DNA of 39,035 bases, taken from UHGV virus genome UHGV-0212837; one strand, given 5' to 3'. The translations under genes were made by a program, and so were the position numbers. Source of the stretch: a virus. Below the pieces are notes generated by a model. That model was given only the letters and a program-made list of their open reading frames with translations. It was not told the DNA's origin and did not search any database. Below are positions 1 through 39,035 of this stretch, in pieces; positions within the stretch are counted from its first letter, which is position 1, and each line of letters opens with the position of its first letter.

Positions 1-891
1 ATGGGCGTCGTTAAGTTAGCTGATTACAGGCATAACCCTGTACAACATCAGGAGGCATCCAGTATGGGGTATGTCTCTATACACCGCCAGTTTATGGACA
101 GCAGGCTCTATAAGGACTCTCAGGCAGTACATCTTTGGCTTCACTTAATCCTCAAGGCTAATCACGAATCTACTGTCGTCAATACGGATATCGGTCCGAT
201 AACTGTTGATCGCGGTCAGATGATAACTGGACGCCCGTCGCTGGTCAGAGAAACATTCATCCCCGACAACAAAGTTCGGAGCTTATTACGGACTTTTGAG
301 TCGAAAGGGATGCTTGATATTTGCTCGATGGGGAAGAAATTTAGCCTGTTTACAATCGTTAAATATGACGATTTTCAGGCAAAAAATTGTCCAACGGTTG
401 TCCAACGGATGTCCAACGCAAACACCAGTAATGGCGCGGCTCTCAGCGGAGATTGTCCAACGGTTGTCCAACGGTTGTCCATAAACAATAATATAAATAA
501 TATCTCTAATACTGACGTATTAGAGAGTGCCACAGCAGACAAAAAGTCTGACAAGAAAAAACCTTCCGTCAGCTGTCAGGATGTTGTCGATGCTTACCAC
601 GAAATCCTTCCTGAAGCGCCAAGAATCCGCGCACTGAATGACAAGCGTAAAAACCAGATCCGAACGTTCTGGCGCAAAGCCGGAGTGATAACCCGCCAGC
701 TTGACGGGCATGGGTTCACGATGCAGGACTGGAGAAATTATTTGAGCTACGTAGGCGAAAATTGCCGATGGATGTTCGAAGAACGCCCAAACCATCAACG
801 CGGAACCGTCTGGCACAAAAAGGGATTTGATTTCCTGCTTAACGACAATACCTACCTGAAAGTTCGTGAGGGTGAACACGATGACCGATAA
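1..891 (+). CDS. Replication initiator, lambda O / P22 gp18-like (296 aa); ori iterons lie inside the coding sequence
   Basis: ATG at 1 preceded (across the window end) by AGGAG at 39025-39029; N-terminal winged-helix-like domain; in-frame iterons encode repeated CPTVVQR; sits upstream of the helicase as in P22. Confidence 0.7.
   Translation: MGVVKLADYRHNPVQHQEASSMGYVSIHRQFMDSRLYKDSQAVHLWLHLILKANHESTVVNTDIGPITVDRGQMITGRPSLVRETFIPDNKVRSLLRTFESKGMLDICSMGKKFSLFTIVKYDDFQAKNCPTVVQRMSNANTSNGAALSGDCPTVVQRLSINNNINNISNTDVLESATADKKSDKKKPSVSCQDVVDAYHEILPEAPRIRALNDKRKNQIRTFWRKAGVITRQLDGHGFTMQDWRNYLSYVGENCRWMFEERPNHQRGTVWHKKGFDFLLNDNTYLKVREGEHDDR
388..480. repeat. Origin iterons: 5 copies of (T)TGTCCAACGG at about 11-bp spacing (388-418 and 453-474) plus a partial sixth, followed by an AT-rich tract 481-520
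   Basis: Direct repeats read in sequence; arrangement (iterons then AT-rich inside the initiator gene) matches lambda ori organisation. Confidence 0.65.
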
Positions 892-2317
892 TTTTTATGC
901 GCCGCCCCATAGCATCGAGGCAGAGCAGGCGGTTATTGGTGGATTGCTTCTGGATGATGACAGCAGTGAGCGCGTCCGGAAAGTTCTGGCGATGCTGAAG
1001 CCTGATTCATTTTACAGCCGACCACACAAAATCCTTTTCGAAGAAATAACCAGAATGCACCGGGAGCAAAAGCCAGTAGATGGGCTGACGCTTTTCGATG
1101 AACTGGAGCGCAAATCGTTAACGGCGTCTGTTGGCGGTTTTGCTTATATCGCTGAGATCGCAAAGAACACGCCAAGCGCAGCAAACATCGTTGCCTATGC
1201 AATGCAGGTTCGTGAAACCGCAATGGAACGCTACGCCATCAACCGCATGACTGAAGCGACGGAATTGCTCTATTCCCGCAACGGAATGACTGCAACGCAG
1301 AAGTACGAAGCTATTCAGGCGATTTTCACGCAACTGACAGATCATGCAAAAACCGGATCGCGTCGCGGCCTTCGCTCATTTGGTGAGGTCATGGAAGACT
1401 GGGTTAGTGACCTTGAGAAGCGATTTGACCCATCAGGCGAACAACGGGGAATGAGCACAGGGATCCCATCGCTGGACAGGATGCTGTCACCGAAAGGTCT
1501 GGTGAAAGGCTCTCTGTTTGTCATTGGCGCCCGCCCTAAGATGGGGAAAACGACGCTATACAGCCAGATGGCAATCAATTGCGCAGTGCATGAGAAAAAG
1601 CCCGCTCTGATGTTCAGCCTTGAAATGCCAGGTGATCAGATACTGGAAAAACTGGTAGGGCAGAAGTCTGGTGTTAACCCGAATATTTTTTACCTTCCGG
1701 CGACAAATGACGCTGATGACGGCTATCAGGGTGATTACGATGGTGACTTCAACAGGGCGATCGAAACAGCCAATCGCTTGAGTGAAATCGACCTGCTTTA
1801 CATCGACGACACGCCGGGATTATCTCTGGCTCAAATCGTCAGCGAAAGCCGTCGAATCAAGCGAGAAAAAGGATGTGTTGGCATGATTCTGGTCGATTAC
1901 CTGACACTAATGACCGCTGAAAAGGCCGATCGCAACGACCTTGCTTACGGCATGATCACCAAAGGACTGAAGAACCTTGCCAAAGAGCTTGATTGCGTTG
2001 TTGTGCTTCTGACACAGCTTAACCGCGCACTGGAAAGCCGAACCAATAAACGCCCATTACCAAGTGACTCACGAGATACAGGGCAGATTGAACAGGATTG
2101 CGATTATTGGGTGGGGATCCATCGTGAAGGTGCTTTTGATGACAGTGTTCCACCTGGTGAAACCGAACTAATCCTTCGTCTCAATCGTCATGGCAATACC
2201 GGCACGGTGTATTGCATTCAGGCAAATGGCGCTATTTATGACACAGACCAACAGTCCGCTGAAATGCGCCGCCGTGAACGCGAGGAGCCGCAGTCCAAGA
2301 AGAAAGGAGGATTCTGA
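881..2317 (+). CDS. Replicative DNA helicase, DnaB family (P22 gp12-like)
   Basis: Walker A GARPKMGKT, DnaB N-terminal motif PPHSIEAEQAVIGGLLLD; ATG at 881 with GAGGGTG SD; track ORF begins at an upstream GTG (866). Confidence 0.85.
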   Translation: MTDNFYAPPHSIEAEQAVIGGLLLDDDSSERVRKVLAMLKPDSFYSRPHKILFEEITRMHREQKPVDGLTLFDELERKSLTASVGGFAYIAEIAKNTPSAANIVAYAMQVRETAMERYAINRMTEATELLYSRNGMTATQKYEAIQAIFTQLTDHAKTGSRRGLRSFGEVMEDWVSDLEKRFDPSGEQRGMSTGIPSLDRMLSPKGLVKGSLFVIGARPKMGKTTLYSQMAINCAVHEKKPALMFSLEMPGDQILEKLVGQKSGVNPNIFYLPATNDADDGYQGDYDGDFNRAIETANRLSEIDLLYIDDTPGLSLAQIVSESRRIKREKGCVGMILVDYLTLMTAEKADRNDLAYGMITKGLKNLAKELDCVVVLLTQLNRALESRTNKRPLPSDSRDTGQIEQDCDYWVGIHREGAFDDSVPPGETELILRLNRHGNTGTVYCIQANGAIYDTDQQSAEMRRREREEPQSKKKGGF

Positions 2318-2345
2318 TGACCATCTACATCACTGAGCTAATAAC

Positions 2346-2377
2346 AGGCCTGCTGGTAATCGCAGGCCTTTTTATTT
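2346..2377 (+). terminator. Rho-independent terminator after the replication genes (tR2-like)
   Basis: AGGCCTGC-8 nt loop-GCAGGCCT followed by TTTTTATTT. Confidence 0.5.
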
Positions 2378-2392
2378 GGGGGAGAGTAAATC

Positions 2393-2599
2393 GTGGCTGA
2401 GTTAATTTTCTCTGCATTGAGGATTCTCGGTGCTATGTGGATGGTGGCGACGTTCATTGTTGTTGCCAGCAGTTTTGTCCGGTTGGTAGGCGAAGGTAAA
2501 GACCTGGTGGGTGTGCTTTTCGGTAGCATTTTCCTGTGGGTGATTATCGGTGTTATGCCTGTCGCTGTAGCAAAAATGGCGTGGCGTTTTGTGAGTTGA
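2393..2599 (+). CDS. Small membrane protein (68 aa, two predicted TM helices)
   Basis: GTG start with GGAGAG SD 6 nt upstream; hydrophobic segments. Confidence 0.45.
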   Translation: MAELIFSALRILGAMWMVATFIVVASSFVRLVGEGKDLVGVLFGSIFLWVIIGVMPVAVAKMAWRFVS

Positions 2600-2616
2600 A
2601 CTGAGGGTAAGTATCG

Positions 2617-2907
2617 ATGGACGAATCAAGAAAGCAGTTTGAAGAAAGTTGGTTGCGACGTGGGGGCGAATCTTCAGACCTTATCCGTTACCCTGAAAAT
2701 CACCATGAAATTGGCAGCGGTAATATTGGTGGTCAATACGTGATGGACGATGTTCAAGGCCACTGGCAAACGTGGCAGGCATCGCGAGCAGCTATTGAAA
2801 TTGAGTTGCCTGTATGGTTTGTCAGTGATGCTATTGCTGTGTACGACCGTGACGATATCGATGAATCCATCCGCGCCGCTGGAATCAAAGTGAAGGAGTT
2901 AGCATGA
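2617..2907 (+). CDS. Hypothetical acidic protein (96 aa)
   Basis: ORF in operon context; stop overlaps next start. Confidence 0.45.
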   Translation: MDESRKQFEESWLRRGGESSDLIRYPENHHEIGSGNIGGQYVMDDVQGHWQTWQASRAAIEIELPVWFVSDAIAVYDRDDIDESIRAAGIKVKELA

Positions 2908-3089
2908 GTCGACGAAGTAGCTTTTTGGGGTTTGTAATATTCCTGTCCTGCACTGGTTACATCGTAATCTGGTCAATTTTGAACATTGACCGTGGCGGGG
3001 AATATCTCATTGTAATGTTCTTTCCTTTGTTTCTTGGGTGGTACTCCGCAAGGTTGCTGGAAGAATGGGGTTACAGGCATAAAAAATAA
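2904..3089 (+). CDS. Small membrane protein (61 aa)
   Basis: ATGA overlap with upstream ORF; two hydrophobic segments. Confidence 0.4.
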   Translation: MSRRSSFLGFVIFLSCTGYIVIWSILNIDRGGEYLIVMFFPLFLGWYSARLLEEWGYRHKK

Positions 3090-3100
3090 AGGAGTATTCA

Positions 3101-3511
3101 GTGAAGCAAACAATCTTCCTCCGAACTAAGCAACAACAGCAAGCTGCAATAAATGCCATCCTCGCAACACCACTCGATAAAGACAAGCCAATCACCATCC
3201 TCATTACTGACTACAAGCGCAACCTTGACCAGAACGCAAAATTTCACGCGATGCTGGCGGATATCGCACGTCAGGTTCAATGGTGCGATAAATGGTTAAA
3301 ACCAGAACAATGGAAGGTTTTGTTGATCAGCGGTCATGCAGTGGCAACAAAGCAGGAAGCTGATGTTTTGCCCGGGCTTGAAGGCGAATACGTCAACATT
3401 CGCGAAAGTAGCGCGCAGATGAGCGTGAAGCGCATGGCAAGCCTGATTGAGTACACGACAGCATGGGCTATTGGTCAGGGTGTCATATTTACCGACAGGA
3501 GGTACGAATGA
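3101..3511 (+). CDS. ninB: NinB (Orf family recombination mediator)
   Basis: Protein closely resembles recalled lambda NinB; GTG start with AAGGAG SD. Confidence 0.8.
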
Positions 3512-3684
3512 GACGACAGCGACGAAGTATCGCCGACATCATCTGCGAAAACTGCAAATACCTTCCAACGAAACGCTCCAGAAATAAACCCAAGCCAATC
3601 CCAAAAGAATCTGACGTAAAAACCTTCAATTACACGGCTCACCTGTGGGATATCAGGTGGCTAAGACATCGTGCGAGGAAATGA
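3508..3684 (+). CDS. NinD/NinE-family small protein (58 aa, CxxC)
   Basis: Internal ATG at 3508 overlapping ninB stop (ATGA); nin-region position. Confidence 0.6.
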
Positions 3685-3686
3685 CA

Positions 3687-4046
3687 ATGGATTATTCACA
3701 GTTAAGTGATTTTGAAATTAACGTGGCGGTATTCGAAGCCATTCATAACGGATCACCGGATTACAAAGAAGGTGAGAATGGCGCGATGGTGTTTATCTCA
3801 TTTGAGGGAGACATTGTAAACGGAGACGCAGTTGAAGTAGAAGTTGAGCGCGGATCCTTTAACCCATGCGCAAACCCAGCAGACGCATGGCCGATTATTG
3901 AAAAATACAGGATTAGCATTATCAATCTCGATGAAGACGAGTGGGGTGCACGCGGTGTGGCCTACTGTAAATCTAAGCGAGCTATACATGAAAATCCCCT
4001 CCGCGCCGCCATGATTGTCTTTCTCATGATGCAGAGAATCCAATAA
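3687..4046 (+). CDS. NinX-like protein (119 aa)
   Basis: ATG at 3687 with GAGG 8 nt upstream; position in nin cluster; family assignment from memory. Confidence 0.45.
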   Translation: MDYSQLSDFEINVAVFEAIHNGSPDYKEGENGAMVFISFEGDIVNGDAVEVEVERGSFNPCANPADAWPIIEKYRISIINLDEDEWGARGVAYCKSKRAIHENPLRAAMIVFLMMQRIQ

Positions 4047-4222
4047 TGCTTAGCCCATCCCAATCCCTTCAATACCAGAAAGAAAGCGTCGAGCGAGCTT
4101 TAACGTGCGCTAACTGCGGTCAAAAGCTGCATGTGCTGGAAGTTCACGTGTGTGAGCACTGCTGCGCAGAACTGATGAGCGATCCGAATAGCTCAATGTA
4201 CGAGGAAGAAGACGATGAGTGA
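4046..4222 (+). CDS. ninF: NinF (58 aa), absent from the ORF track because it is under 60 aa
   Basis: Translation [58 protein letters not shown]; TAATG overlap with upstream gene. Confidence 0.65.
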   Translation: MLSPSQSLQYQKESVERALTCANCGQKLHVLEVHVCEHCCAELMSDPNSSMYEEEDDE

Positions 4223-4484
4223 TTTCTCTGAGCTTATTTCCTTCAAAAAAGACAGAGAAGAAATGCGGACTGAATCTGTCTATTACGTTCAACACCGGAA
4301 TAAACGCTCGGTGCTTGATCAGGAGTTGATTATTACCGGAGACCTGGCATTCAGAACATATAAGGCCAGCATGGAAATGAAGGATTTCCCTAAATGTGGT
4401 TCTGAAAGAGAAGCCGCGTTAAAGCTGGCTGAGTGGATGCAGAGAATGGCTGCTGCAATTGAGAATTACTGGAGCGAACCATAA
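4215..4484 (+). CDS. Nin-region hypothetical protein (NinY-like position, 89 aa)
   Basis: ORF overlapping ninF end and ninG start. Confidence 0.5.
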
Positions 4485-5095
4485 TGGCTAAACCAGCGCG
4501 AAGACGATGTAAAAACGATGAATGTCGGGAATGGTTTCACCCTGCATTCGCTAATCAGTGGTGGTGCTCTCCAGAGTGTGGAACCAAGATAGCACTCGAA
4601 CGACGAAGTAAAGAACGCGAAAAAGCGGAAAAAGCAGCAGAGAAGAAACGACGACGAGAGGATCAGAGACAGAAAGATAAACTTAAGATTCGAAAACTCG
4701 CCTTAAAGCCCCGCAGTTACTGGATTAAACAAGCCCAACAAGCCGTAAACGCCTTCATCAGAGAAAGAGACCGCGACTTACCATGTATCTCGTGCGGAAC
4801 GCTCACGTCTGCTCAGTGGGATGCCGGACATTACCGGACAACTGCTGCGGCACCTCAACTCCGATTTGATGAACGCAATATTCACAAGCAATGCGTGGTG
4901 TGCAACCAGCACAAAAGCGGAAATCTCGTTCCGTATCGCGTCGAACTGATTAATCGCATCGGGCAGGAAGCAGTAGACGAAATCGAATCAAACCATAGCC
5001 GCCATCGCTGGACTGTCGAAGAGTGCAGGTCCATCAAGGCGGAGTATCAGCAGAAACTCAAAGACCTGCGAAATAGCAGAAGTGAGGCCGCATGA
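4484..5095 (+). CDS. ninG: NinG / Rap recombination-promoting nuclease
   Basis: Cys-rich N-terminus and basic stretch typical of lambda NinG; 203 aa. Confidence 0.85.
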
Positions 5096-5298
5096 CGTTC
5101 TCAGTAAAAACCATTCCAGACATGCTTGTTGAAGCATACGGAAACCAGACAGAAGTAGCACGCAGACTGAAATGTAGTCGCGGTACGGTCAGAAAATACG
5201 TTGATGATAAAGACGGGAAAATGCACGCCATCGTCAACGACGTTCTTATGGTTCATCGCGGATGGAGTGAAAGAGATGCGCTATTACGAAAGAATTGA
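5092..5298 (+). CDS. ninH: NinH
   Basis: [26 protein letters not shown]... matches recalled lambda NinH; ATGA overlap. Confidence 0.8.
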
Positions 5299-5941
5299 TG
5301 GCAGCAAATACCGAAATATTTGGGTAGTTGGCGATCTGCACGGATGCTACACGAACCTGATGAAAAAACTGGAGACGATAGGATTCGACACCAAAAAAGA
5401 CCTGCTTATCTCGGTTGGCGATTTGGTCGATCGCGGTACAGAGAACGTCGAATGTCTGGAATTAATCACATTCCCCTGGTTCCGAGCTGTACGTGGAAAC
5501 CATGAGCAAATGATGATTGATGGCTTATCAGAGCGCGGAAACGTCAATCACTGGATGCTTAATGGCGGTGGCTGGTTCTTTAATCTCGATTACGACAAAG
5601 AAATTCTGGCTAAAGCTCTTGCCCATAAAGCAGATGAACTTCCGTTAATCATCGAACTGGTGAGCAAAGATAAAAAATATGTCATCTGCCACGCCGATTA
5701 TCCTTGTGACGAATACGAGTTTGGAAAGCCAGTTGATCATCAGCAGGTAATCTGGAACCGCGAACGAATCAGCAACTCACAAGACGGGATCGTGAAAGAA
5801 ATCAAAGGCGCGGACACGTTCATCTTTGGTCATACGCCAGCAGTGAAACCACTCAAGTTTGCCAACCAGATGTATATCGATACCGGCGCAGTGTTCTGCG
5901 GAAACCTCACATTGATTCAGGTACAGGGAGAAGGCGCATGA
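5276..5941 (+). CDS. ninI: NinI Ser/Thr protein phosphatase (lambda PPase-like)
   Basis: GDLHG, GDLVDRG, GNHE metallophosphatase motifs; start at internal ATG 5276 (MRYYERIDG). Confidence 0.85.
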
Positions 5942-6561
5942 GACTCGAAAGCGTAGCTAAATTTCATTCGCCAAAAAGCCCGATGATGAGCGACTCACCA
6001 CGGGCTACGGCTTCTGACTCTCTTTCCGGTACTGATGTGATGGCTGCTATGGGGATGGCGCAATCACAAGCCGGATTCGGAATGGCTGCATTCTGCGGTA
6101 AGCATGAACTCAGCCAGAACGACAAACAAAAGGCTATCAACTATCTGATGCAATTTGCACACAAGGTATCGGGGAAATACCGTGGCGTTGCAAAGCTTGA
6201 AGGAAATACTAAGGCAAAGGTACTGCAAGTGCTCGCAACATTCGCTTATGCGGATTATTGCCGTAGTGCCGCGACGCCTGGCGCAAGATGCAGAGATTGT
6301 CACGGTACAGGCCGTGCGGTTGATATAGCAAAAACAGAGCAGTGGGGGAGAGTTGTTGAGAAAGAGTGCGGAAGATGCAAAGGCGTCGGCTATTCAAGGA
6401 TGCCAGCAAGCGCAGCATATCGCGCTGTGACGATGCTAATCCCAAACCTTACCCAACCCACCTGGTCACGCACTGTTAAGCCGCTGTATGACGCTCTGGT
6501 GGTGCAATGCCACAAAGAAGAGTCAATCGCAGATAATATTTTGAACGCGGTCACACGTTAG
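5938..6561 (+). CDS. Q: Late antiterminator Q
   Basis: 207 aa, essentially identical to recalled lambda Q. Confidence 0.95.
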
Positions 6562-6603
6562 CAGCATGATTGCCACGGATGGCAACATATTAACGGCATG
6601 ATA

Positions 6604-6632
6604 TTGACTTATTGAATAAAGTTGGGTAAATT
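6604..6632 (+). promoter_or_regulatory. Late promoter pR' (-35 TTGACT 6604-6609, -10 TAAATT 6627-6632) with overlapping Q-utilisation region
   Basis: Hexamers with 17-bp spacer immediately downstream of Q, as in lambda. Confidence 0.6.
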
Positions 6633-6639
6633 TGACCCA

Positions 6640-6831
6640 ACGATGGGTTAATTCGCTCGTTGTGGTAGTGAGATAAAAAGAGGCGGCGATTACTACCGAT
6701 TCCGCCTAGTTGGTCACTTCGACGTATCGTCTGGAACTCCAACCATCGCAGGCTGAGAGGTCTGCAAAATGCAATCCCGAAACAGTTCGCAGGTAATAGT
6801 TAGAGCCTGCATAACGGTTTCGGGATTTTTT
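6640..6831 (+). ncRNA. Short pR' leader transcript (lambda 6S RNA analogue) ending at tR'
   Basis: Inferred from pR' start about 6640 and tR' hairpin; not a bacterial SsrS. Confidence 0.4.
6776..6831 (+). terminator. tR' terminator
   Basis: CCCGAAAC...GTTTCGGG stem followed by ATTTTTTAT. Confidence 0.6.
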
Positions 6832-7274
6832 ATATCTGTGCAACAGGTAAGAGCATTCTCCCTTATGGGGCTTGGCTTAAATGCACCGAGTGCTCTTATC
6901 GTTGTGGTGAAGCTCAATGGCGAGCTAGCAGATAGGCGACAGTGAAAATACTAGTCATGTAGCTGACCGCCGCGCGTACTGCAATCGGCAGCGCACCGAT
7001 GGAAGCCGGTTCGATTCCGGCCGCCACAACCCAAACTGAGCCGTAGCCACTGGCTATCCTGAATTCATCAGTGATAGTTACGCTGCGGCCTTCTACACAT
7101 GACCTTCGTGAAAGCGGGTGGCATGAGGTTGCGCTAACAACCTCCTGCCGTTTTGCCCGTGCATATCGGTCACGAACAAATCTGATTACTAAACACAGTA
7201 GCCTGGATTTGTTCTATCAGTAATCGACCTTATTCCTAATTAAATAGAGCAAATCCCCTTATTGGGGGTAAGAC

Positions 7275-7598
7275 ATGAAGATGCCAGAAAAACATGACCT
7301 GTTAGCCGCCATTCTCGCGGCAAAGGAACAAGGCATCGGGGCAATCCTTGCGTTTGCAATGGCGTACCTTCGCGGCAGATATAATGGCGGTGCGTTTACA
7401 AAAACAGTAATCGACGCAACGATGTGCGCCATTATCGCCTGGTTCATTCGTGACCTTCTCGACTTCGCCGGACTAAGTAGCAATCTTGCTTATATAACGA
7501 GCGTGTTCATCGGCTACATCGGTACTGACTCGATTGGTTCGCTTATCAAACGCTTCGCTGCTAAAAAAGCCGGAGTAGAAGATGGTGGAAATCAATAA
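7275..7598 (+). CDS. S: Holin S (S107/S105 dual-start MKM motif)
   Basis: 107 aa, near-identical to recalled lambda S. Confidence 0.95.
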
Positions 7599-30269: not shown

Positions 30270-30375
30270 AATCATCTCCATAAAACAAAACTCGCCGTAG
30301 CGAGTTCAGATAAAAGAAATCCCCGCGAGTGCGAGGATTGTTATTCACCTTTGACGGCAAGTTGCAGGTTAGCCA

Positions 30376-31277: not shown

Positions 31278-31279
31278 AG

Positions 31280-31471: not shown

Positions 31472-31472
31472 C

Positions 31473-31985
31473 TCACTCTCCTTTGATGCCAATGTTTACA
31501 GCCTGGCAAGCCTCTTTGAGCACCCAGTCAACAGCGTCTTTCCATGCTCCAGTTTCGACTGGCGGATTTTCACGCTTAACCTGTTCATAGAAGCGCACTG
31601 CTTTAATCAATCCTTCTGGTGTCAGTGGCACAGGCGGGGCAGTGAATAACGCCTGAATTTCATAGTTCGGTCTGTCGTTGCAATCCTCTTTTGTCGGTAC
31701 ATATTTCCAGTCACCAACCCACGGCTCCCCCTGTGAGTCCGTAATGCCTTTTTTCACGTAGCGATATCGCCACGCTATCGGCTCTGCTTCCAGCAATGCC
31801 AGCACAATTCGTGCCAGCTCACGCACTACTTCCGGGGGAGCGTAACGGTCATTCAGGTCATCCCACAGGCGTAGCATGTTATCGCTACCAGGGTGAACAT
31901 CCTCGTTAGTTCCGGCAAGCGCACTAATAACCTCATCGGCTGCCTCAATAATTTTCAGAGCTTGTTCTCTGGTAATAGTGGTCAT
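31473..31985 (-). CDS. Hypothetical protein, MTTIT paralog 2 (170 aa)
   Basis: Shares nucleotide-identical first 5 codons and an ELARI(V/A)LA motif with paralog 1. Confidence 0.5.
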   Translation of the reverse strand: MTTITREQALKIIEAADEVISALAGTNEDVHPGSDNMLRLWDDLNDRYAPPEVVRELARIVLALLEAEPIAWRYRYVKKGITDSQGEPWVGDWKYVPTKEDCNDRPNYEIQALFTAPPVPLTPEGLIKAVRFYEQVKRENPPVETGAWKDAVDWVLKEACQAVNIGIKGE

Positions 31986-32191
31986 TTGTTAACCCTCAAA
32001 ACTTTATGCCCGGGCGCAAAAGCACGCGTTTTGTCTTTGCTTATTCGCCAGCCATCATTACGTGCCTCTTTTGCACAGCCAGCCCATGACGTACCGATAT
32101 ACTCACCGAAGTCTGGCGTTTGATATTTACCATTTGTACACTGGCGACAATCACAGTAGAGATGCATGGTGTAACTTGCGGCAATAGCCAT
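31982..32191 (-). CDS. Cys-rich small protein (69 aa)
   Basis: YCDCRQC...GC motif; track ORF N-terminal extension conflicts with the upstream gene. Confidence 0.4.
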   Translation of the reverse strand: MAIAASYTMHLYCDCRQCTNGKYQTPDFGEYIGTSWAGCAKEARNDGWRISKDKTRAFAPGHKVLRVNK

Positions 32192-32192
32192 A

Positions 32193-32384
32193 TCAGTCTC
32201 CTTTAGTGCGCAGGTGGTTTTTCCAGCGGTTTTGCGCCGCGCTGCGCTTATCTTTGATTCCCTCTCTGGCAATTCCAGAATATAAGTACAACACCACACG
32301 GCGATTGCTAACTCTCAACCACTGGCTGGGATAGCAACGTCTGTATACACGGGAAATAAGCATCTTTGCTTTACGGTTTTTCAT
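32193..32384 (-). CDS. Small basic protein B (63 aa, MKNRKAK...)
   Basis: ORF in track; start ATG overlaps stop of protein A (ATGA). Confidence 0.45.
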   Translation of the reverse strand: MKNRKAKMLISRVYRRCYPSQWLRVSNRRVVLYLYSGIAREGIKDKRSAAQNRWKNHLRTKGD

Positions 32385-32557
32385 CTTACTGCGTACCCTT
32401 TCTTCCGCCTGTTCTGTGACGCTGTAGGCTTACGCTTTGCGGCAAAAGCCACCTGACCAAATGGATGGAGTACCGCTATCTTATGGTTGCTAATAACCAG
32501 CTCCACCACACGCACAGGTCGCTGTAAAAAAAGTCGTTTTGCCTTACGGTTTTTCAT
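32381..32557 (-). CDS. Small basic protein A (58 aa, MKNRKAK...), not in track
   Basis: Hand translation MKNRKAKRLFLQRPVRVVELVISNHKIAVLHPFGQVAFAAKRKPTASQNRRKKGYAVR; ATGA overlaps at both ends. Confidence 0.4.
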   Translation of the reverse strand: MKNRKAKRLFLQRPVRVVELVISNHKIAVLHPFGQVAFAAKRKPTASQNRRKKGYAVR

Positions 32558-32730
32558 CGCTTTGCTCTCCTGCGTTTCTTTGCTGCTCGTCGTGCCGCTG
32601 CAATACCGGTATGGCGGCGCTTTGGTGCCGGGATGATGTTGTCAGCCATCAGGACATGCGGCTTTGTAATTAGCGCAGAAGCCCAAAAACGAGTCGGATA
32701 CGGTAACAAGCCGATACATGCCACACGCAT
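32554..32730 (-). CDS. Small basic protein C (58 aa, Arg/Lys/Ala-rich C-terminus), not in track
   Basis: Hand translation MRVACIGLLPYPTRFWASALITKPHVLMADNIIPAPKRRHTGIAAARRAAKKRRRAKR; start overlaps upstream stop. Confidence 0.4.
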   Translation of the reverse strand: MRVACIGLLPYPTRFWASALITKPHVLMADNIIPAPKRRHTGIAAARRAAKKRRRAKR

Positions 32731-33209
32731 TACTCACCCTCTTTGATGCGAATGCCAGCGTCAGACATCATATGCAGATACTCACCTGCATCCTGAACCC
32801 ATTGACCTCCAACCCCGTAATAGCGATGCGTAATGATGTCGATAGTTACTAACGGGTCTTGTTCGATTAACTTCCGCAGAAACTCTTCCAGGTCACCAGT
32901 GCAGTGCTTGATGACAGGAGTTTTCCCAGGATGGCGAACAACAAGAAACTGATTTCCGACTTCACGGACTTCGTTGCTTTCCAGTTCTGCTATGCGCTTC
33001 TCTGCGGCAGTAATGATGCCCTCTAGGCGTCGATTTCTACTTTCGAGTGTTTTGACTTGCTCTTTATCGGCTTCCAGCGTCTCTACCAGCACAATCACTG
33101 CCTCTGGCGTTGCTAAATCCTGCCAGTTGTCTGATGTGTCGCAGACAGAGCGCAGCATAATTTCTTCTGCTGCCGCCGCACGTAGTGCCTGATAATCAAT
33201 TTCGCTCAC
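32730..33209 (-). CDS. Hypothetical coiled-coil protein (159 aa, GTG start)
   Basis: GTG at 33209 with AAGGAGG SD 6 nt upstream and GTGA overlap with upstream stop; track ORF is a longer N-terminal extension. Confidence 0.5.
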   Translation of the reverse strand: MSEIDYQALRAAAAEEIMLRSVCDTSDNWQDLATPEAVIVLVETLEADKEQVKTLESRNRRLEGIITAAEKRIAELESNEVREVGNQFLVVRHPGKTPVIKHCTGDLEEFLRKLIEQDPLVTIDIITHRYYGVGGQWVQDAGEYLHMMSDAGIRIKEGE

Positions 33210-33658
33210 TGGCTGCCTCCTTTGCGAAGTTGGGCGGCGCGATTGTTTGCCTGCTGGAGAACCATCTTCCAACCAACAACGCAATGCATATCAGATGAAC
33301 ACTGCTGATTGGAGAACTTGACCAACATTGTTTCAGCCAAGCCAGCCAAGCTATCAAGTTCGCTGGCCCGCACTTCAGCCAGGAAGGCGTCGGTGGCCGG
33401 GGTTTTGCAGGACATTTGAATTGCCTTCTCTGTGTATAAAACACCCGTTCGATTGGCGGTATACATGATGGTGTTTACAGCATCTTGATGTGCTGATTTC
33501 ACAGCCTCAACTTCAGCAGCCAGCGCCGCGCACTTGGCCTCCGCTTCAGCAAATTTACGCACCAGATATTCAGCGTTTGTTTCGTTAACCTTTAAATCTC
33601 GTGGTATGCATTTACCTTTCAGAAATCCATCCATCTCAATTAGTGACATTAGTTTCAT
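33206..33658 (-). CDS. Hypothetical protein (150 aa)
   Basis: ATG 33658 overlapping upstream stop (ATGA). Confidence 0.45.
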
Positions 33659-33837
33659 TTCTTCCCACTCCGCCACATCGCATTCAGATATTTGTTGTCA
33701 TTAACAGAACCTAAACTATTTCTCTTAAGCAATTCCTCTCTCGATGGCATTGGCTTTACGCGTTGGCGAATAATCATTTCTGCCGGAAGAATGCCGGGAT
33801 TGTATGCAAGTCCTCTCATTGTAAATTCCTCAGTCAT
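33655..33837 (-). CDS. Hypothetical small protein (60 aa)
   Basis: Internal ATG 33837; start uncertain. Confidence 0.35.
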
Positions 33838-34123
33838 TACTGATAGCGCCATAGCGTGAGCGGTAATTACGCAGGCGCGGGTCAATTTCAGGGAAGTGGG
33901 TATATGTGGCTTTGCGGAATGGTCGGATTGATGTCTGGTAAATTCGATCGCGTTCTTCTTTCTCTGCAAGCCATATACAGTGGCGAAATTCCTTTTCCTC
34001 TTTCGTTTCCTGCGGTAGCGACATTATTCGATCGTAGTTTTTTCTGAATTTATCCAGCACCTCCGATACGGAATTGCCGGAACAGCGGCGCGCGTCGTCC
34101 GCACCATACAGAGGCGCTGGCAT
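33830..34123 (-). CDS. Hypothetical protein (97 aa)
   Basis: ATG with AAGGAT SD; follows ssb. Confidence 0.4.
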
Positions 34124-34146
34124 AATGGAATCCTTATGTTGCTACT

Positions 34147-34530
34147 TTAGAAGGGAATTGAATCGTCGTATTCAGGATGATTTTGATGATTGCTACTTTG
34201 CTGCTGTTGGCTGTTTCCTGAAGTTGCAAATCCAATCTTTGCATTCAGTAATTCAAGAGTGATTGATTGACCATTTTGCCCCTGATAAACATCAACCCTG
34301 ATGTTTTCTCCGGTAATTTCTACAATGCCACCTTCAACAAGAACACTACGGTAGTAATCCGCTTGCGCTCCCGGCTTGGCAAATACAACGGCGCTGTAGT
34401 TTGTCCATTCTTTCTTTTTTGTCTGGCGATCGTAATACTGAACGCCAGCACGGATGTTGAATCCGATATTTTCCCCGGCCTGAAACTCTCTTGCGGGCTT
34501 GTTTAGTCTTACAGTAATCGAATGTGCCAT
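34147..34530 (-). CDS. ssb: Single-stranded DNA-binding protein
   Basis: 127 aa from internal ATG 34530; acidic C-terminal tail ...DDSIPF; TAATG overlap with erf. Confidence 0.75.
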   Translation of the reverse strand: MAHSITVRLNKPAREFQAGENIGFNIRAGVQYYDRQTKKKEWTNYSAVVFAKPGAQADYYRSVLVEGGIVEITGENIRVDVYQGQNGQSITLELLNAKIGFATSGNSQQQQSSNHQNHPEYDDSIPF

Positions 34531-35135
34531 TAAGCAGCAGCTCCTTCTAATTCGTCTCGTCTGATGTTGTAAACGTCCTGCGCTTTGTGCTGCTCCGGTG
34601 TGCCTTCGAGCATCTTCCACGCTTTGGCGAACGCCTGTTTAAGCTCTTCCACGGTGTTTTTCTGCAATGCTGCGTCAGTGAATGCTTTTAGAACCTGTTC
34701 AGGTGTAGGTGATGGTTTTGATTGCTTTGCTGCTGCGTTCTGCTGATGTTTATGCTCGTCGGTATCTGCATCTTTCGCATCATCAATGCCGAACAAACCA
34801 TTGAGGCAATACTTGCGTGCATAAGAGCTTGTAGCTCCCGTAACTTGTGCAGAATCCATTCCTTTCTTGCTTTCTTCCTCTCGTGCAAGAGCGGTTGCTG
34901 TATGACTGTTTTCGCCATCAGTAATAGTTGCCGTTGCTTTCACGTAATACCGATCACCAATCAACACAACTTCATCGCTGATTGATAAAAACAGACCATT
35001 CAGTAACGGCTTAACGCCTTCAAGAATATCTTCGCAGCTTCTGTATTTATATTTGCCGAATGAGTTGTACTGATTCTTTGGCGCGTTCAGATTCTCCTGA
35101 ATAGCTGCCAGTCTTGCGTAAAATTCTTTGCTCAT
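34530..35135 (-). CDS. erf: Erf single-strand annealing recombinase (P22 Erf-like)
   Basis: MSKEFYARLAAIQENLNAPKNQYNSFGKYKYRSCEDILEG matches recalled Erf N-terminus; track start is an upstream TTG. Confidence 0.8.
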   Translation of the reverse strand: MSKEFYARLAAIQENLNAPKNQYNSFGKYKYRSCEDILEGVKPLLNGLFLSISDEVVLIGDRYYVKATATITDGENSHTATALAREEESKKGMDSAQVTGATSSYARKYCLNGLFGIDDAKDADTDEHKHQQNAAAKQSKPSPTPEQVLKAFTDAALQKNTVEELKQAFAKAWKMLEGTPEQHKAQDVYNIRRDELEGAAA

Positions 35136-35391
35136 ATGATTGTTCTCAGAATGGACACGGCCCAAGGAAATAACGCTGATTTAATACTTCGACTCGGGAC
35201 AAATTAAGGCATACCCGCATTCCTTCGCGGTCGCCATTATGGCGATACCAGAGAGCTTTCTGCGTGTACATGCGTCTCTGTAACTTGCTCTCCTTCACTG
35301 TGGTTGCAAGTGACATGAATATCTCCTTCGTTACCGATTAATTCTTTCATCTGACGAATGAATTCTTCGTCTGACCAGTTATCTGTAAAAC

Positions 35392-35544
35392 TCATTTCCT
35401 GCGATACCACGGCAGGTTGATAGCTGATTTCATCGCTTTATTTGCTTCAAGCCACATTTTGGAATCACCAATAAATCGGGCTATTACTGCTTTGTTTTGT
35501 GCTGCACGAAGCATCTGGTGATTGATGGCTATTTCATTGCGCAT
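35392..35544 (-). CDS. kil: Kil-like small protein (50 aa), not in track
   Basis: Hand translation MRNEIAINHQMLRAAQNKAVIARFIGDSKMWLEANKAMKSAINLPWYRRK; GGAGG SD; FIGD(S/E)KM motif recalled from lambda Kil. Confidence 0.45.
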   Translation of the reverse strand: MRNEIAINHQMLRAAQNKAVIARFIGDSKMWLEANKAMKSAINLPWYRRK

Positions 35545-35663
35545 AACGCCTCCAGTTGTTTCTTTGCTGCTCTGATTAATTGTTTAACTCGGCGTGATAA
35601 TTCAGATTCGTGCGGGTAGAAAGCGGACATGACGCCGCTACCCGCGAGCTGAAAGTGCATCAT
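35529..35663 (-). CDS. cIII: CIII-like FtsH inhibitor (44 aa)
   Basis: MMHFQLAGSGVMSAFYPHESELSRRVKQLIRAAKKQLEALCAMK resembles the lambda/P22 cIII core; AAGGAG SD. Confidence 0.65.
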   Translation of the reverse strand: MMHFQLAGSGVMSAFYPHESELSRRVKQLIRAAKKQLEALCAMK

Positions 35664-35738
35664 GGGTAACTCCTTATATTTGATTGCATAACGAAAACGC
35701 CTCAAGTGAAGCGTTATTGGTATGCGGTAAAGCCGCAC

Positions 35739-36107
35739 TCAGGCGGCTTTGATAGTCATATCATCTGAATCAAATATTCCTGATGTATCGATATCGGTAA
35801 TTCTTATTCCTTCGCTACCATCCATTGGAGGCCATCCTTCCTGACCATTTCCATCATTCCAGTCGAACTCACACACAACACCACATGCATTTAAGTCGCT
35901 TGAAATTGCTATAAGCAGAGCATGTTGCGCCAGCATGATTAATACAGCATTTAATACAGAGCCGTGTTTATTGAGTCGGTATTCAGAGTCTGACCAGAAA
36001 TTATTAATCTGATGAAGTTTTTCCTCTGTCATTACGTCATGGTCGATTTCAATTTCTATTGATGCTTTCCAGTCGTAATCAATGATGTATTTTTTGATGT
36101 TTGACAT
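35739..36107 (-). CDS. Hypothetical protein (122 aa)
   Basis: ATG with GAGGAT SD immediately downstream of a terminator hairpin. Confidence 0.5.
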   Translation of the reverse strand: MSNIKKYIIDYDWKASIEIEIDHDVMTEEKLHQINNFWSDSEYRLNKHGSVLNAVLIMLAQHALLIAISSDLNACGVVCEFDWNDGNGQEGWPPMDGSEGIRITDIDTSGIFDSDDMTIKAA

Positions 36108-36125
36108 CTATTCATATCCTCATAG

Positions 36126-36155
36126 ATAAAAAATTGCCCTCACATCGGAGGGCAA
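36126..36155 (-). terminator. Terminator-like hairpin (TTGCCCTC-loop-GAGGGCAA plus U-run)
   Basis: 8-bp stem, U-run on minus strand. Confidence 0.45.
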
Positions 36156-36270
36156 AGAAGATTTCCAATAATCAGAACAAGTCGGCTCCTGTTTAGTTAC
36201 GAGCGACATTGCTCCGTGTATTCACTCGTTGGAATGAATACACAGTGCAGTGTTTATTCTGTTGTTTATG

Positions 36271-36298
36271 CTAAAAATAAAGGCCGAATATTCGGCCT
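36271..36298 (-). terminator. Terminator-like hairpin (AGGCCGAA-TA-TTCGGCCT plus U-rich tail), tL1-like position
   Basis: Perfect palindrome 5 nt after the stop of the 36303-36752 gene, followed by TTTATTTTT on minus strand. Confidence 0.5.
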
Positions 36299-36302
36299 GA
36301 AA

Positions 36303-36752
36303 TTACTTAACCAATGACGCTGCATATTCAATTAGGAATAACTTAGGTGCCAGCCAAATTTTTAACCATGTCATATTGGCTACTACAGAAATAATAAAAC
36401 TGAACCATAGAATAAAAACTGCTACTAATGGTAAGACAAAACCACTTAACCTACCGTCACTTTCCCAAAGCATAGTTGGTTTGTATTTAGGCTGTCCATT
36501 ATCGCATGAGCGTCCTTCATTATCGAACTTACCAATTTCAACTTTTTTGCACTGTTTCTTCATAAACCAAATAACCAGCGGAATTGTTGAAATGGCTATT
36601 AATGTTTTAATCAGGCTATCAACCATATTCCATACCAGCAACTGATGAACAACATCCGGAATCTGTGCCTGGCTAAATGAAACAGCCGCGTCTATTCCAT
36701 TGCTGGCTTTTTGCAGTAGTTCTACGAGAATCTTGTTTGCTTGTTCTTCCAT
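36303..36752 (-). CDS. Membrane protein (149 aa, predicted TM segments); candidate superinfection-exclusion protein
   Basis: GAGGTG SD; hydrophobic helices; position immediately downstream of N. Confidence 0.55.
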   Translation of the reverse strand: MEEQANKILVELLQKASNGIDAAVSFSQAQIPDVVHQLLVWNMVDSLIKTLIAISTIPLVIWFMKKQCKKVEIGKFDNEGRSCDNGQPKYKPTMLWESDGRLSGFVLPLVAVFILWFSFIISVVANMTWLKIWLAPKLFLIEYAASLVK

Positions 36753-36760
36753 ATATCACC

Positions 36761-37087
36761 TCAAATAAGTGGTTTGCTGCCTAATTTCATTTTCTGGCGA
36801 CCAACACAAGTCACACCCATTTCACTGCGTGGCTTGCTGTACCATGTGCGCTGATTCTTGCGCTCAATACGCTGCAGGTTGCTTTCAATCTGTTCGTGGT
36901 ATTCAGCCAGCACCGTAAGGTCTATCGGATTCAGTGCGCTTTCTACTCGTGATTTCGGTTTGCGATTCAGCGAGAGAATAGGGCGGTTAACTGGTTTTGC
37001 GCTTACCCCAACCAACAGGGGATTTGCTGCTTTCCATTTAGCCTGTTTCTCTGAGCGACGTTCGCGGCGGCGTGTTTGTGCATCCAT
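36761..37087 (-). CDS. N: Antiterminator N
   Basis: 108 aa from internal ATG 37087, near-identical to recalled lambda N (MDAQTRRRERR...); AGGAGA SD. Confidence 0.9.
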   Translation of the reverse strand: MDAQTRRRERRSEKQAKWKAANPLLVGVSAKPVNRPILSLNRKPKSRVESALNPIDLTVLAEYHEQIESNLQRIERKNQRTWYSKPRSEMGVTCVGRQKMKLGSKPLI

Positions 37088-37244
37088 CTGGATTCTCCTG
37101 TCAGTTAGCTTTGGTTGTGTGTGGGAGTCGTAGTCCTGAACGAAAACACCCCGCAATGGCACATTGGCAGCTAATCCGGATTCGCACTTCCGGCCAATGC
37201 TTCGTTTCGTATCACACACACCAAAGCCTTCTGCTTTGAATGCT

Positions 37245-37275
37245 GCCCTTCTTCAGGGCTTAATTTTTAAGAGCA
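37245..37275 (-). promoter_or_regulatory. nutL (boxB GCCCUGAAGAAGGGC at 37245-37259; boxA-like UGCUCUUA at 37268-37275)
   Basis: boxB read on the minus strand matches the recalled lambda nutL boxB; boxA upstream at the expected spacing. Confidence 0.7.
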
Positions 37276-37314
37276 TCACCTTCATGGTGGTCAGTGCGTC
37301 CTGCTGATGGCTAA

Positions 37315-37343
37315 ATAGTACGATTTGTACTTTATCGAGTCAA
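37315..37343 (-). promoter_or_regulatory. pL promoter (-35 TTGACT 37338-37343, -10 TACTAT 37315-37320) overlapping an operator palindrome
   Basis: Hexamers with 17-bp spacer on minus strand; AGTACGATTTGTACT palindrome 37317-37331. Confidence 0.6.
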
Positions 37344-37404
37344 TACAAAATGTTCTAAATATAATTAGTTTTTTATAACGCTTTGTATTTAATGGGTTTA
37401 TATT

Positions 37405-37438
37405 TTGGAAAAAGAAAACCCGACGCTAAGGTCGGGTT
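37405..37438 (-). terminator. Terminator immediately downstream of cI
   Basis: CCCGAC-loop-GTCGGG hairpin with U-rich tract; no rex-like genes between cI and pL. Confidence 0.5.
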
Positions 37439-37468
37439 ATTGTTGTGTGTTTTAGAGTGGTGAGGCTG

Positions 37469-38164
37469 TTAACTAAATGTCTCTTCAGGCCACTGGCTGG
37501 CGATAACTTTCCCTACTACGGAACAGCTATCATTGCATGGAATCATTGGATATTGCGGGTTTAGTGGCTGGAGGAACACCTGACCGCTATCCCTGATCAG
37601 TTTCTTAAAGGTAAACTCGTCACCACCAAGTCTAGCTATGCAGAAATCACCTGGCTCAACAGCCTGATCAGGGTCAACGAGAATTAACATCCCGTCAGGA
37701 AAGCTTGGCTTGGATCCTGTTGGCGCGGTCATGGAATTACCTTCAACTTCAAGCCAAAACGCACAATCACTGGCTTTTTTGGTTGTGCTGACCCATCTCT
37801 CCGCATCACCTTTGGTAAAGGTTCTAAGCTCAGGCGAGAACATCCCGGCCTGAACATGAGAAAAAACAGGGTACTCATATTGTTTTTTAACGGGGGCAGA
37901 TGAGTATTCGCCAACAGGTGAAAATGTACCGTCGTGGTTGAATGAGACGTTATCAATACCAAGGTATTTAAACACCACACCAATCTCGTCAAGAGATGGA
38001 TGACGAGATCCGCGCAACCAGTGACCAATTCCACCCTGCGTCATACCAAGCTCTTCAGCTAACTTCTCTTGAGTTATGCCGAGCTCTTTCATTCTGGATC
38101 TAGCCAGTTCATACCATTTCATTTTCATACCCTTATTATTACGCTCTGTACTAAAACCATCCAT
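37469..38164 (-). CDS. cI: CI-type repressor (S24 peptidase domain near-identical to lambda cI; heterologous HTH domain)
   Basis: C-terminal ~130 aa match recalled lambda cI including the Ala-Gly cleavage context; first ATG at 38164, track begins at an upstream TTG (38170). Confidence 0.85.
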
Positions 38165-38184
38165 GCACAAGATGTATTTTTTGT

Positions 38185-38213
38185 TTGCATTCTAAAAGTA
38201 CATATCGTATTAT
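38185..38213 (+). promoter_or_regulatory. pR promoter (-35 TTGCAT, -10 TATTAT) overlapping an OR operator copy at 38197-38211
   Basis: Hexamers with 17-bp spacer; operator related to the OL palindrome (2 mismatches in 15). Confidence 0.5.
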
Positions 38214-38239
38214 TGTTTCATGGTTACTATGGAGGGCAT

Positions 38240-38455
38240 ATGAGCAACCTACGAAAATATCGAGAGTCACTGAATATCTCTCAAACAACACTTGCTAAGG
38301 CAGTTGGATGCACACAGGGAGCTATCGGACATTGGGAATCTGGTCGTCGCTTCCCAGACCTTAAAACATGCCGTGCTCTTGTTGAGTGCCTAAACAAGTT
38401 AGGCGCAAAAGTCAGTCTTGATGACGTGTTCCCGCCGGAACACAAAGCCGCTTAA
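38240..38455 (+). CDS. cro: Cro-like repressor (71 aa HTH)
   Basis: ATG 38240 with GGAGGG SD; HTH ISQTTLAKAVGCTQGAIGHWESG; divergent from cI across OR. Confidence 0.7.
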   Translation: MSNLRKYRESLNISQTTLAKAVGCTQGAIGHWESGRRFPDLKTCRALVECLNKLGAKVSLDDVFPPEHKAA

Positions 38456-38463
38456 GACATTCC

Positions 38464-38495
38464 CGCTCTTACACATCCCAGCCCTGAAAAAGGGC
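38464..38495 (+). promoter_or_regulatory. nutR (boxA CGCTCTTA 38464-38471; boxB GCCCTGAAAAAGGGC 38481-38495)
   Basis: Matches recalled lambda nutR elements, between cro and cII. Confidence 0.7.
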
Positions 38496-38574
38496 ATCAA
38501 ATTAAACCACACCTATGGTGTATGCATTTATTTGCATACATTCAATCAATTGTTAGCTAAGGAAATACTTACAT

Positions 38575-38853
38575 ATGCAACTTACAAGTACTCGCAAGAA
38601 AGCGAATGCAATTACAAGCAACATCCTGAATCGAATTGCTGTACGTGGTCAGCGAAAGGTTGCCGACGCGTTAGGGGTTAATGAATCGCAAATTTCGCGA
38701 TGGAAAGACAGCTTCATCCCCAAAATGGGAATGCTTCTGGCTGTTCTTGAATGGGGTGTTGAAGACGAGGAGTTGGCGGAACTGGCTAAGCAAGTAGCCA
38801 GAATGCTGACAAAAGAAAAAGCCCCGAAGAACGGCGAATTCTTCGAGGCCTAA
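38575..38853 (+). CDS. cII: CII transcriptional activator
   Basis: 92 aa; ...ESQISRWK...IPKMGMLLAVLEWGVEDEE... closely resembles lambda CII. Confidence 0.85.
   Translation: MQLTSTRKKANAITSNILNRIAVRGQRKVADALGVNESQISRWKDSFIPKMGMLLAVLEWGVEDEELAELAKQVARMLTKEKAPKNGEFFEA
38608..38621 (-). promoter_or_regulatory. CII-binding site TTGC-N6-TTGC (pRE -35 region) inside the cII N-terminal coding sequence
   Basis: GCAATTACAAGCAA on plus strand equals TTGCTTGTAATTGC on minus; position as in lambda pRE. Confidence 0.45.
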
Positions 38854-38887
38854 TGTAGAAAGACTGGATCAATCCACGGGAGTAATT

Positions 38888-39035
38888 ATGACAAAACGTC
38901 GTAAGAAATACCAGGAAAAAGAAGAGATTCGACACCCTGATTCACCTGAGGGATTAGTGGTAGCCGCAGCAAATAACAGGGCGTTCGCAGAGCGCCTTGT
39001 TGGTGTTTACAGACTAGCCAAAGCAGGAGTGAAGC
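38888..39035 (+). CDS. Small hypothetical protein between cII and O (P22 orf48-like position), running off the window end
   Basis: ATG 38888; would end at 12-14 (53 aa) if the window is circular. Confidence 0.35.
   Translation, partial: MTKRRKKYQEKEEIRHPDSPEGLVVAAANNRAFAERLVGVYRLAKAGVK

Follow-up and report, generated by a model that had tools for sequence, protein, structure and literature searches.

UHGV-0212837 is very probably the complete genome of a mosaic P22-like temperate phage, opened at its replication initiator gene

Lambdoid phages are classically defined by recombination with lambda that gives viable hybrids. A whole-genome nucleotide similarity of ~70% is the genus guideline of the International Committee on Taxonomy of Viruses, a criterion that is weakened by mosaicism in the P22-like group. 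The described phages closest to the virus genome UHGV-0212837, the subject of this analysis, are IME10 (JF974339 / NC_019501, 39,646 bp), the Lederbergvirus members Sf6 (AF547987, 39,043 bp) and P22 (AF217253), and lambda (NC_001416). Headful packaging with terminal redundancy has been described for Sf6 and P22 (PMC5630979), and mosaicism of the degree found here is the norm for P22-like phages, e.g. Sf101 (PMC4159516). An earlier note, made from the sequence alone, had read the whole 39,035-nt stretch (hereafter the window) as a complete, circularly permuted mosaic phage genome. This is supported by an exact junction of the window ends, an internal attP site, a full and intact gene set and a measured mosaicism. 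With its 39,035 bp, the window is very probably an entire unit-length genome, namely that of a P22-like, lambdoid and temperate podovirus of Escherichia coli/Shigella, presented as a circle opened at the first base of an O-like replication initiator gene. In the following, coordinates refer to the window, genes are on the plus strand unless marked as minus, and identities are given at the amino acid (aa) or nucleotide (nt) level.

The two ends of the window abut exactly, with nothing lost or duplicated; a terminal overlap of 8-200 nt between them was sought and not found. On the joined circle, the ribosome-binding site AGGAG (39025-39029, plus strand) is followed by the six nucleotides TGAAGC and then by the ATG of the O-like gene at 1-3, as had been noted before. 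Likewise, the open reading frame (ORF) that starts with an ATG at 38888 meets no stop codon before 39035 and, across the join, ends at a TAA at 12-14, giving 53 aa (MTKRRK...VKHGRR). Its 5' part comprises 148 nt (38888-39035) and its 3' part 14 nt including the TAA (1-14), the latter overlapping the start of the O-like gene. In a PHROG profile search, the joined ORF matched phrog_1331 over positions 1-53 of 53 (E=1.4e-37), and its product is 100% identical to that of Sf6 gene 42. The 14-nt overlap with the O-like gene is identical in Sf6 (27852-28013 and 28000-28890). A TGA at 39030-39032 lies in frame with the O-like ORF, two codons before the ATG at base 1. A true O start upstream of position 1, which the earlier note had considered as a counter-indication, is therefore impossible.

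The junction was further compared with sequenced genomes by means of a 1,400-nt query composed of the last 700 nt and the first 700 nt of the window. It aligns to Sf6 27408-28699 as a single ungapped piece (1,292 query nt on 1,292 record nt, 99.2%) that covers cII, gene 42 and gene 43. In five E. coli chromosomes the match extends over 1,400 of 1,400 nt, for example in NZ_CP178707 at 98.9%, and the cII-to-O junction of IME10 is contiguous at 98.1%. In the E. coli chromosomal prophage contig L023 (GCA_048608515.1), an ungapped alignment of 3,909 nt (98.7%) covers window 37475-39035 and then 1-2348, i.e. it spans cI to the helicase gene straight over the window junction. The gene order that had been proposed to continue around the circle, namely cII (92 aa), the 53-aa ORF, the O-like gene (296 aa) and the helicase gene (478 aa), recurs in the independent prophages L023, L030 and L032. 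The position of the O-like ATG at base 1 suggests that the record was rotated by software or by the depositor, the chance that a random break falls on the first base of a gene being well under 1%. Arbitrary permutation is common in the group: the same O gene is found at 9313 in one IME10 record and at 22852 in the other.

The attachment site lies inside the window. A 13-bp attP, CGTAATCGTGAAA, has been published for phages 2851 and Sf101 (PMC4159516). The exact 13-mer is present at 27741-27753, upstream of int, as part of an attP common core at 27741-27770 that is antisense to the 5' coding end of the host gene sbcB; the antisense strand of 27741-27786 translates to M-T-D-T-D-K-Q-P-T-F-L-F-H-D-Y. 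Prophages with this integrase are located at sbcB. Their attL-type similarity to the window begins at 27741, directly adjoining the sbcB 5' end, and their attR-type similarity stops at 27770, beyond which host dacD and sbmC follow. Both states of the element are represented among Logan assemblies. Contig ERR10017490_78 corresponds to window 14936-27770 (12,835 ungapped nt, 99.64%) and continues into host dacD and sbmC; it is the integrated form at sbcB/dacD. Contig SRR7892476_56 corresponds to window 23804-28490 with one mismatch and an uninterrupted attP; it is the excised form. A continuation of host flanking DNA beyond either end of the window, which the earlier note had named as a counter-indication, is thus contradicted by the prophage host junctions, which map to the internal attP, and PHROG scans found no host genes among the window ORFs anywhere. 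Given the intact attP inside the window, the genome is in the excised or vegetative, not the prophage, configuration. The site is accompanied by a tyrosine integrase gene (27968-29146; phrog_1; Pfam Arm-DNA-bind_3 and Phage_integrase) and a gene for an excisionase-like helix-turn-helix protein (29127-29318, minus; phrog_66). Phages 2851, Sf101, HK544 and mEp234 share the integrase region at 96-97% nt but differ from the window in their late genes or cargo, with Stx2c in 2851, oacB in Sf101 and siphovirus tails in the HK and mEp phages.

The gene content is that of an entire phage. PHROG and Pfam scans took in ~70 window ORFs; each module was found once, in canonical lambdoid order and with full-length ORFs. 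Around the joined circle the order is int/xis, recombination, cIII, N, cI, cro, cII, replication, nin, Q, lysis and structural genes. ORF lengths equal those of the P22/Sf6 homologues (terS 162, terL 499, scaffold 303, gp10 472, gp14 151 and gp16 665 residues), ~91% of the window is coding according to the working gene list, and the total of 39,035 bp is comparable to Sf6 and IME10. A P22-type assembly cluster at 10535-27242 contains 13 of 13 genes in canonical order: terS, terL, portal, scaffold, coat, gp4, gp10, gp26, gp14, gp7, gp20, gp16 and tailspike.

The first two genes of this cluster encode a P22-type terminase (10535-12500; phrog_606, phrog_5653, phrog_2), with terS at 10535-11023 (162 aa) and terL at 11001-12500 (499 aa) being 82% and 92% aa identical to P22 gp3 and gp2, respectively. 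From this terminase type we infer that the virion DNA would be circularly permuted. The 22-bp P22 pac occurs once in P22, at 23479-23500. It was absent from the window when sought at up to three mismatches; a putative diverged pac is located at 10802-10823 (plus strand) inside the small-terminase gene. This equivalent of the P22 pac (GAAGGTTTTTCTGACGTCACAT) is identical at 15 of 22 positions by ungapped alignment, with a 3' third that is wholly different.

Several observations weigh against a complete and correctly assembled genome of this type. The physical circularity and permutation of the molecule are deduced rather than observed. Among phages, plasmids and complete E. coli genomes, no record covers at least 80% of the whole genome, the best being IME10 with 77% of 1-25000. 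The early-left region (28000-38200) is covered collinearly by at most 57% in any of 5,426 complete E. coli genomes, so that the assembly of this stretch is without independent confirmation. Despite a TerS that is 82% identical to P22 gp3, the 22-mer of the P22 pac lacks conservation, and in an exact-protein look-up the O-like protein was on record nowhere else. As no record covers the whole genome, it constitutes a new mosaic and probably a new species, though of a kind that is thoroughly known.

The same gaps in coverage bear on the only rival explanation with some room, i.e. that the window is a chimeric circular misassembly of at least two co-resident lambdoid prophages, joined via shared homologous segments. 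Short-read assemblers can switch within a patchwork of segments with 93-99% identity to different phages, no collinear match covers more than 57% of the early-left region, and the same cI and cro are seen next to other replication modules. However, such an accident would have had to leave every module present once, in canonical order and with intact ORFs, at a total length that suits a P22-type head. Large parts are moreover backed by other sequences: 14936-27770 and 23804-28490 by independent assemblies (99.6-99.98%), the stretch from 37475 across the junction to 2348 by L023, and 2000-16000 by four E. coli chromosomes in which it is collinear at 80-87%. The patchwork itself is the documented norm for P22-like phages (PMC4159516), and a chimera appears very unlikely.

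Even less credit is due to two further explanations of the window ends. If the window were a prophage region cut from a chromosome, with ends at or near the host junctions and a circle that closes by coincidence, this would fit with close relatives that are mostly chromosomal E. coli prophages and with one near-identical copy of the late region integrated at sbcB/dacD. Yet the host junctions correspond to 27741-27770, an internal position flanked on either side by phage DNA, the ends interrupt a conserved phage operon by cutting through a 53-aa gene that Sf6 and many prophages have intact, and the window is without any host gene; this origin is accordingly extremely improbable. About as remote is the possibility that the genome is linear, with fixed ends of the cos or direct-terminal-repeat type, and that the window ends are its physical termini. 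The window is indeed linear and without terminal overlap, but its ends split a conserved gene and part a ribosome-binding site from the start codon that belongs to it, the window lacks a lambda-type Nu1/A terminase and a cos region, and its terminase is P22-type (82% and 92% aa), a type that packages by headful (PMC5630979). A complete circular genome opened at the O-like gene thus remains by far the best reading.

The whole-genome alignment to lambda and P22 that the earlier note had proposed was carried out with blastn, together with Sf6, and quantifies the mosaic origin of the window. Lambda covers 6.2 kb in eight segments of 93-98% nt identity with sharp boundaries. These include 4481-6857, which corresponds to lambda 42429-44805 at 97.4% (ninG, ninH, ninI, Q and the PR' region), 7025-8324 (S, R and the beginning of Rz), as well as 167 nt of ninE, the genes ea10 and N, and the C-terminal half of cI. 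P22 covers 17.0 kb (43% of the window) at 70-94% nt, mainly from terS to gp20 and additionally at Q, ninG, abc2, erf and cII. Sf6 covers 15.2 kb (39% of the window) at 86-99.5% nt, i.e. the replication module, gp10 to gp14, gp16, the lysis genes, kil, N and cII. The mixture of genes had been described as lambda-like nin, Q, S, R and N combined with P22-like replication and morphogenesis. The lambda-like genes and a P22-/Sf6-like morphogenesis are borne out, whereas the replication genes are P22-like only in kind, their alleles being those of Sf6 (98.3% nt over 1-2400). The likeness to P22 replication consists in an initiator and a phage-owned DnaB-type helicase instead of lambda P. Well-known interchangeable modules are newly combined in this genome, which does not represent a new kind of element.

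The best overall relative is IME10, which at 96.5% nt is collinear with 77% of window 1-25000; this part comprises the genes for the O-like protein and the helicase together with the nin, lysis, terminase and virion genes. For 25001-39035, i.e. the receptor-binding part of the tailspike, att/int, the early-left region and immunity, IME10 does not rank with the better matches and is hence a different mosaic, not the same phage. Sf6 shares cII and genes 42, 43 and 44 at 98-99.5% nt, contiguous over the window junction, as well as origin iterons at the same place, gp10 to gp14 and gp16 (90-97% nt), the lysis genes, N, kil, abc2, and its size and architecture. Its terminase, portal, scaffold and coat differ, the aa identities ranging from none to 33%, and its integrase, attP, immunity region and tailspike receptor-binding domain are unlike those of the window. 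Sf6 also carries a phage 21-type Q with tRNA-Asn and tRNA-Thr, an IS911 in ninG, and oac, whereas ninG is intact in the window.

P22 has the same order of virion-assembly genes, with terS, terL, portal, scaffold, coat, gp10, gp14, gp7 and gp20 at 72-93% aa, and resembles the window also in Q, ninG, abc2, erf, cII and the head-binding domain of the tailspike. In contrast to P22, the window has a lambda R-type endolysin instead of gp19, lacks gtrABC, sieA and a full immI, and carries a different integrase and att site. The likeness to lambda comprises ninG to the start of Rz (95-97% nt), the regulatory layout and an iteron origin inside the initiator gene. Unlike lambda, the window has no lambda O, P, head, tail or cos genes and has erf/abc2 instead of exo/bet/gam; integrase, cro and the DNA-binding domain of cI differ as well.

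Circles of similar size with full P22-like virion sets are also found among the PLSDB 'plasmids' of E. coli/Salmonella (39-41 kb; NZ_CP081778.1, NZ_CP081786.1, NZ_CP063485.1, NZ_CP146561.1, NZ_CP146567.1 and NZ_CP043906.1). These are most likely phage genomes that were assembled as extrachromosomal circles.

A life cycle can be proposed from what is known of the P22, Sf6 and lambda family. After injection, the DNA would circularise by Erf-type recombination between terminally redundant ends as in P22, and the choice between lysis and lysogeny would be set by cI, cro, cII and cIII. For lysogeny, Int would recombine attP with the 5' end of sbcB, the phage providing a substitute 5' end for this gene. 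Upon induction, N and then Q would act as antiterminators, and the O-like protein would bind iterons within its own gene and load the phage DnaB-type helicase. The P22-type terminase would cut the resulting concatemers near pac in the small-terminase gene, and headful filling would yield circularly permuted, terminally redundant virion DNA. Either this permuted DNA or the induced circular form would assemble as a circle, in which case the choice of base 1 would be arbitrary or made by software or the depositor.

The significance of a closed genome is mostly one of housekeeping. The record can be treated as a whole phage genome, re-oriented (e.g. to the small terminase gene), classed as P22-like and used as a reference, and homology allows its integration site (sbcB) and its types of immunity, replication and packaging to be assigned. 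The genome adds one more documented case in which modules have been exchanged between lambda, P22, Sf6 and resident E. coli prophages.

The element of some practical interest is the tailspike (24936-27242, 768 aa), in which a P22-type head-binding domain is joined to a divergent receptor-binding part. Residues 1-113 match 113 of 113 profile positions of Pfam PF09008 (E=2e-67), and matches in PDB (the N-termini of the Sf6 and P22 tailspikes) are confined to residues 1-129. For the receptor-binding part (residues ~122-768; 25299-27242), no Pfam or PDB match was found beyond the head-binding domain, and its identity to anything among 50,697 phage records is at most 28%. Its best match is a tail-collar fiber of an Aeromonas phage, and another weak match is annotated as pectate-lyase superfamily. 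The GC content of this part is low, with 36% as opposed to 47.5% genome-wide. The exact 768-aa tailspike occurs in two independent short-read (Logan) assemblies, ERR10017490 and SRR7892476. A 40-mer scan gave no match for it in the species-representative genome collection and one in an IMG/VR contig with a 98.5% nt-identical copy, the neighbouring genes of which are otherwise different. It seems possible, though we hold it only tentatively, that the phage is a previously unsequenced species-level P22-like mosaic whose tailspike would confer a glycan (O-antigen/capsule) specificity undescribed for any isolated phage. The same tailspike is found in a few E. coli prophage assemblies, so that this uncharacterised host-range determinant is in circulation. 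The receptor-binding part, which resembles that of no isolated phage among the records searched, could yield a new polysaccharide-specific depolymerase; nothing else in the genome is of comparable practical interest.

The replication module begins with the O-like initiator gene (1-891, 296 aa), which matches phrog_345 (E=3e-85) and is 99% aa identical to Sf6 gp43. Compared with lambda O, lambda P and P22 gp18, no detectable match was found. A stronger ribosome-binding site, AGGAGG, is located inside the gene at 50-55, 8 nt before an in-frame ATG at 64, and a shorter initiator that starts at residue 22 may be produced. DnaD-like profile matches in the protein begin at about residues 18-22. A putative replication origin (386-520) consists of two clusters of three 11-bp iterons, TTGTCCAACGG, at ~388-420 and ~454-486, with an A+T-rich tract behind them; the annotated rep_origin of Sf6 (28385-28480) is the counterpart of window 386-481. 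The adjacent gene encodes a DnaB-type replicative helicase (881-2317, 478 aa; phrog_19, E=7.5e-137; Pfam DnaB and DnaB_C) that is 99% aa identical to the Sf6 gene 44 product and only 31% to P22 gp12.

The nin region (2393-5941) contains orf68, orf96, orf61, ninB (3101-3511), ninE (3508-3684), ninX (3687-4046), ninF (4046-4222), orf89, ninG (4484-5095), ninH (5092-5298) and the phosphatase gene ninI (5276-5941), as assigned by PHROG matches. It is followed by the lambda allele of the late antiterminator gene Q (5938-6561; phrog_127), with a product 100% aa identical to lambda Q. Downstream of Q, 6562-7274 is by homology a lambda-like PR'/tR' region (97% nt). No tRNA genes or Rfam families were found in the window. 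The lysis cassette (7275-8513; phrog_126, phrog_90, phrog_13) is composed of the genes for holin S (7275-7598; 99% aa to lambda), endolysin R (7582-8058; 97% aa to lambda) and Rz (8055-8513). An embedded Rz1-like lipoprotein ORF lies within Rz at ~8269-8460, with an LLVVSAC lipobox in the Rz1 frame. Between the lysis and packaging genes, an accessory gene for a Rha-like regulator is present (8789-9400; phrog_518, E=3e-81; 52% aa to P22 ORF201).

The remaining virion genes follow the terminase genes, starting with portal (12501-14666; phrog_156; 78% aa to P22 gp1), scaffolding protein (14680-15591, 303 aa; phrog_648; 85% aa to P22 gp8) and coat protein (15591-16886; phrog_283; 72% aa to P22 gp5). 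Genes for head completion, needle and ejection proteins occupy 16932-24464, beginning with orf76 and continuing, according to PHROG matches, with gp4 (17140-17640), gp10 (17640-19058), the needle gene gp26 (19058-19906), gp14 (19906-20361), gp7 (20364-21059), gp20 (21070-22467) and gp16 (22467-24464). The gp10, gp14 and gp16 products are 98-100% aa identical to those of Sf6, and those of gp7 and gp20 share 91-93% identity with their P22 counterparts.

Between gp16 and the tailspike gene, a Mnt/Arc-type ribbon-helix-helix repressor of 97 aa is encoded on the minus strand (24554-24847); the Pfam profiles Arc and Repressor_Mnt match the identical gene in L013 and L014. No target of this repressor is apparent. 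No arc/ant pair was found, the Mnt-like gene being the sole immI-like gene in the window, and in the absence of arc or ant the locus looks like a reduced immI region. An ORF at 24427-24702 (minus) without a PHROG or Pfam family match was treated as spurious, the Mnt/Arc-like gene being the real one. On the other side of the tailspike gene, a decayed humD/umuD-like pseudogene remnant (27404-27654, plus strand) was recognised through the way in which RefSeq annotates the homologous DNA of E. coli E54. This remnant (S24 peptidase) lies between tailspike and attP, where P22 and Sf6 have O-antigen modification genes, and hundreds of E. coli prophages carry the same humD-like remnant at their attR end (matches to query 54-528). 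A 100-aa ORF at 27394-27696 (minus), again without a family match in PHROG or Pfam, is probably spurious, the real feature being the humD remnant on the plus strand.

The early-left operon (29396-37087, minus) carries accessory ORFs (Ea22-like and DUF types) besides the named genes, as indicated by PHROG matches. The named genes, all on the minus strand, are abc2 (33830-34123; 92% aa to P22), an SSB-like gene (34147-34530), erf (34530-35135; 75% aa to P22), kil (35392-35544), cIII (35529-35663), an ea10-like gene (35739-36107; 99% aa to lambda) and N (36761-37087; 89% aa to lambda). Flanked by N and the ea10-like gene, where lambda and P22 have the ral/sieB accessory genes, orf149 (36303-36752, minus; 149 aa) matches the unnamed PHROG 3054 only and shares 49% identity with Sf6 gene 34; it gave no Pfam or PADLOC match. 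Similarly, none of the PADLOC defence-system profiles matched any of ten accessory ORFs. Two adjacent small ORFs at 32193-32384 and 32381-32557 (minus; 63 and 58 aa) both match phrog_1380, which points to a tandem duplication of an early-left gene without assigned function.

The immunity region (37469-38853; phrog_4, phrog_3, phrog_191) comprises cI (37469-38122, minus; 217 aa), cro (38240-38455; Pfam HTH_3) and cII (38575-38853; 99% aa to Sf6). The C-terminal (S24 peptidase) half of cI is 92.6% nt identical to lambda cI; no match to cro or to the DNA-binding half of cI was found in lambda, P22 or Sf6. By its predicted protein, cI is a hybrid repressor with a lambda-like C-terminal half and another N-terminal DNA-binding half. 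An exact-protein look-up located the identical 217-aa cI beside a different set of cII, O and helicase genes in other assemblies. The identical cro is mostly found beside other replication modules, though also in the junction-bridging L023, and a 231-aa variant of cI is commoner next to it than the 217-aa form. The protein look-ups thus illustrate the mosaicism, and none of them led to the same genome. The same cI and cro are widespread in E. coli prophages.

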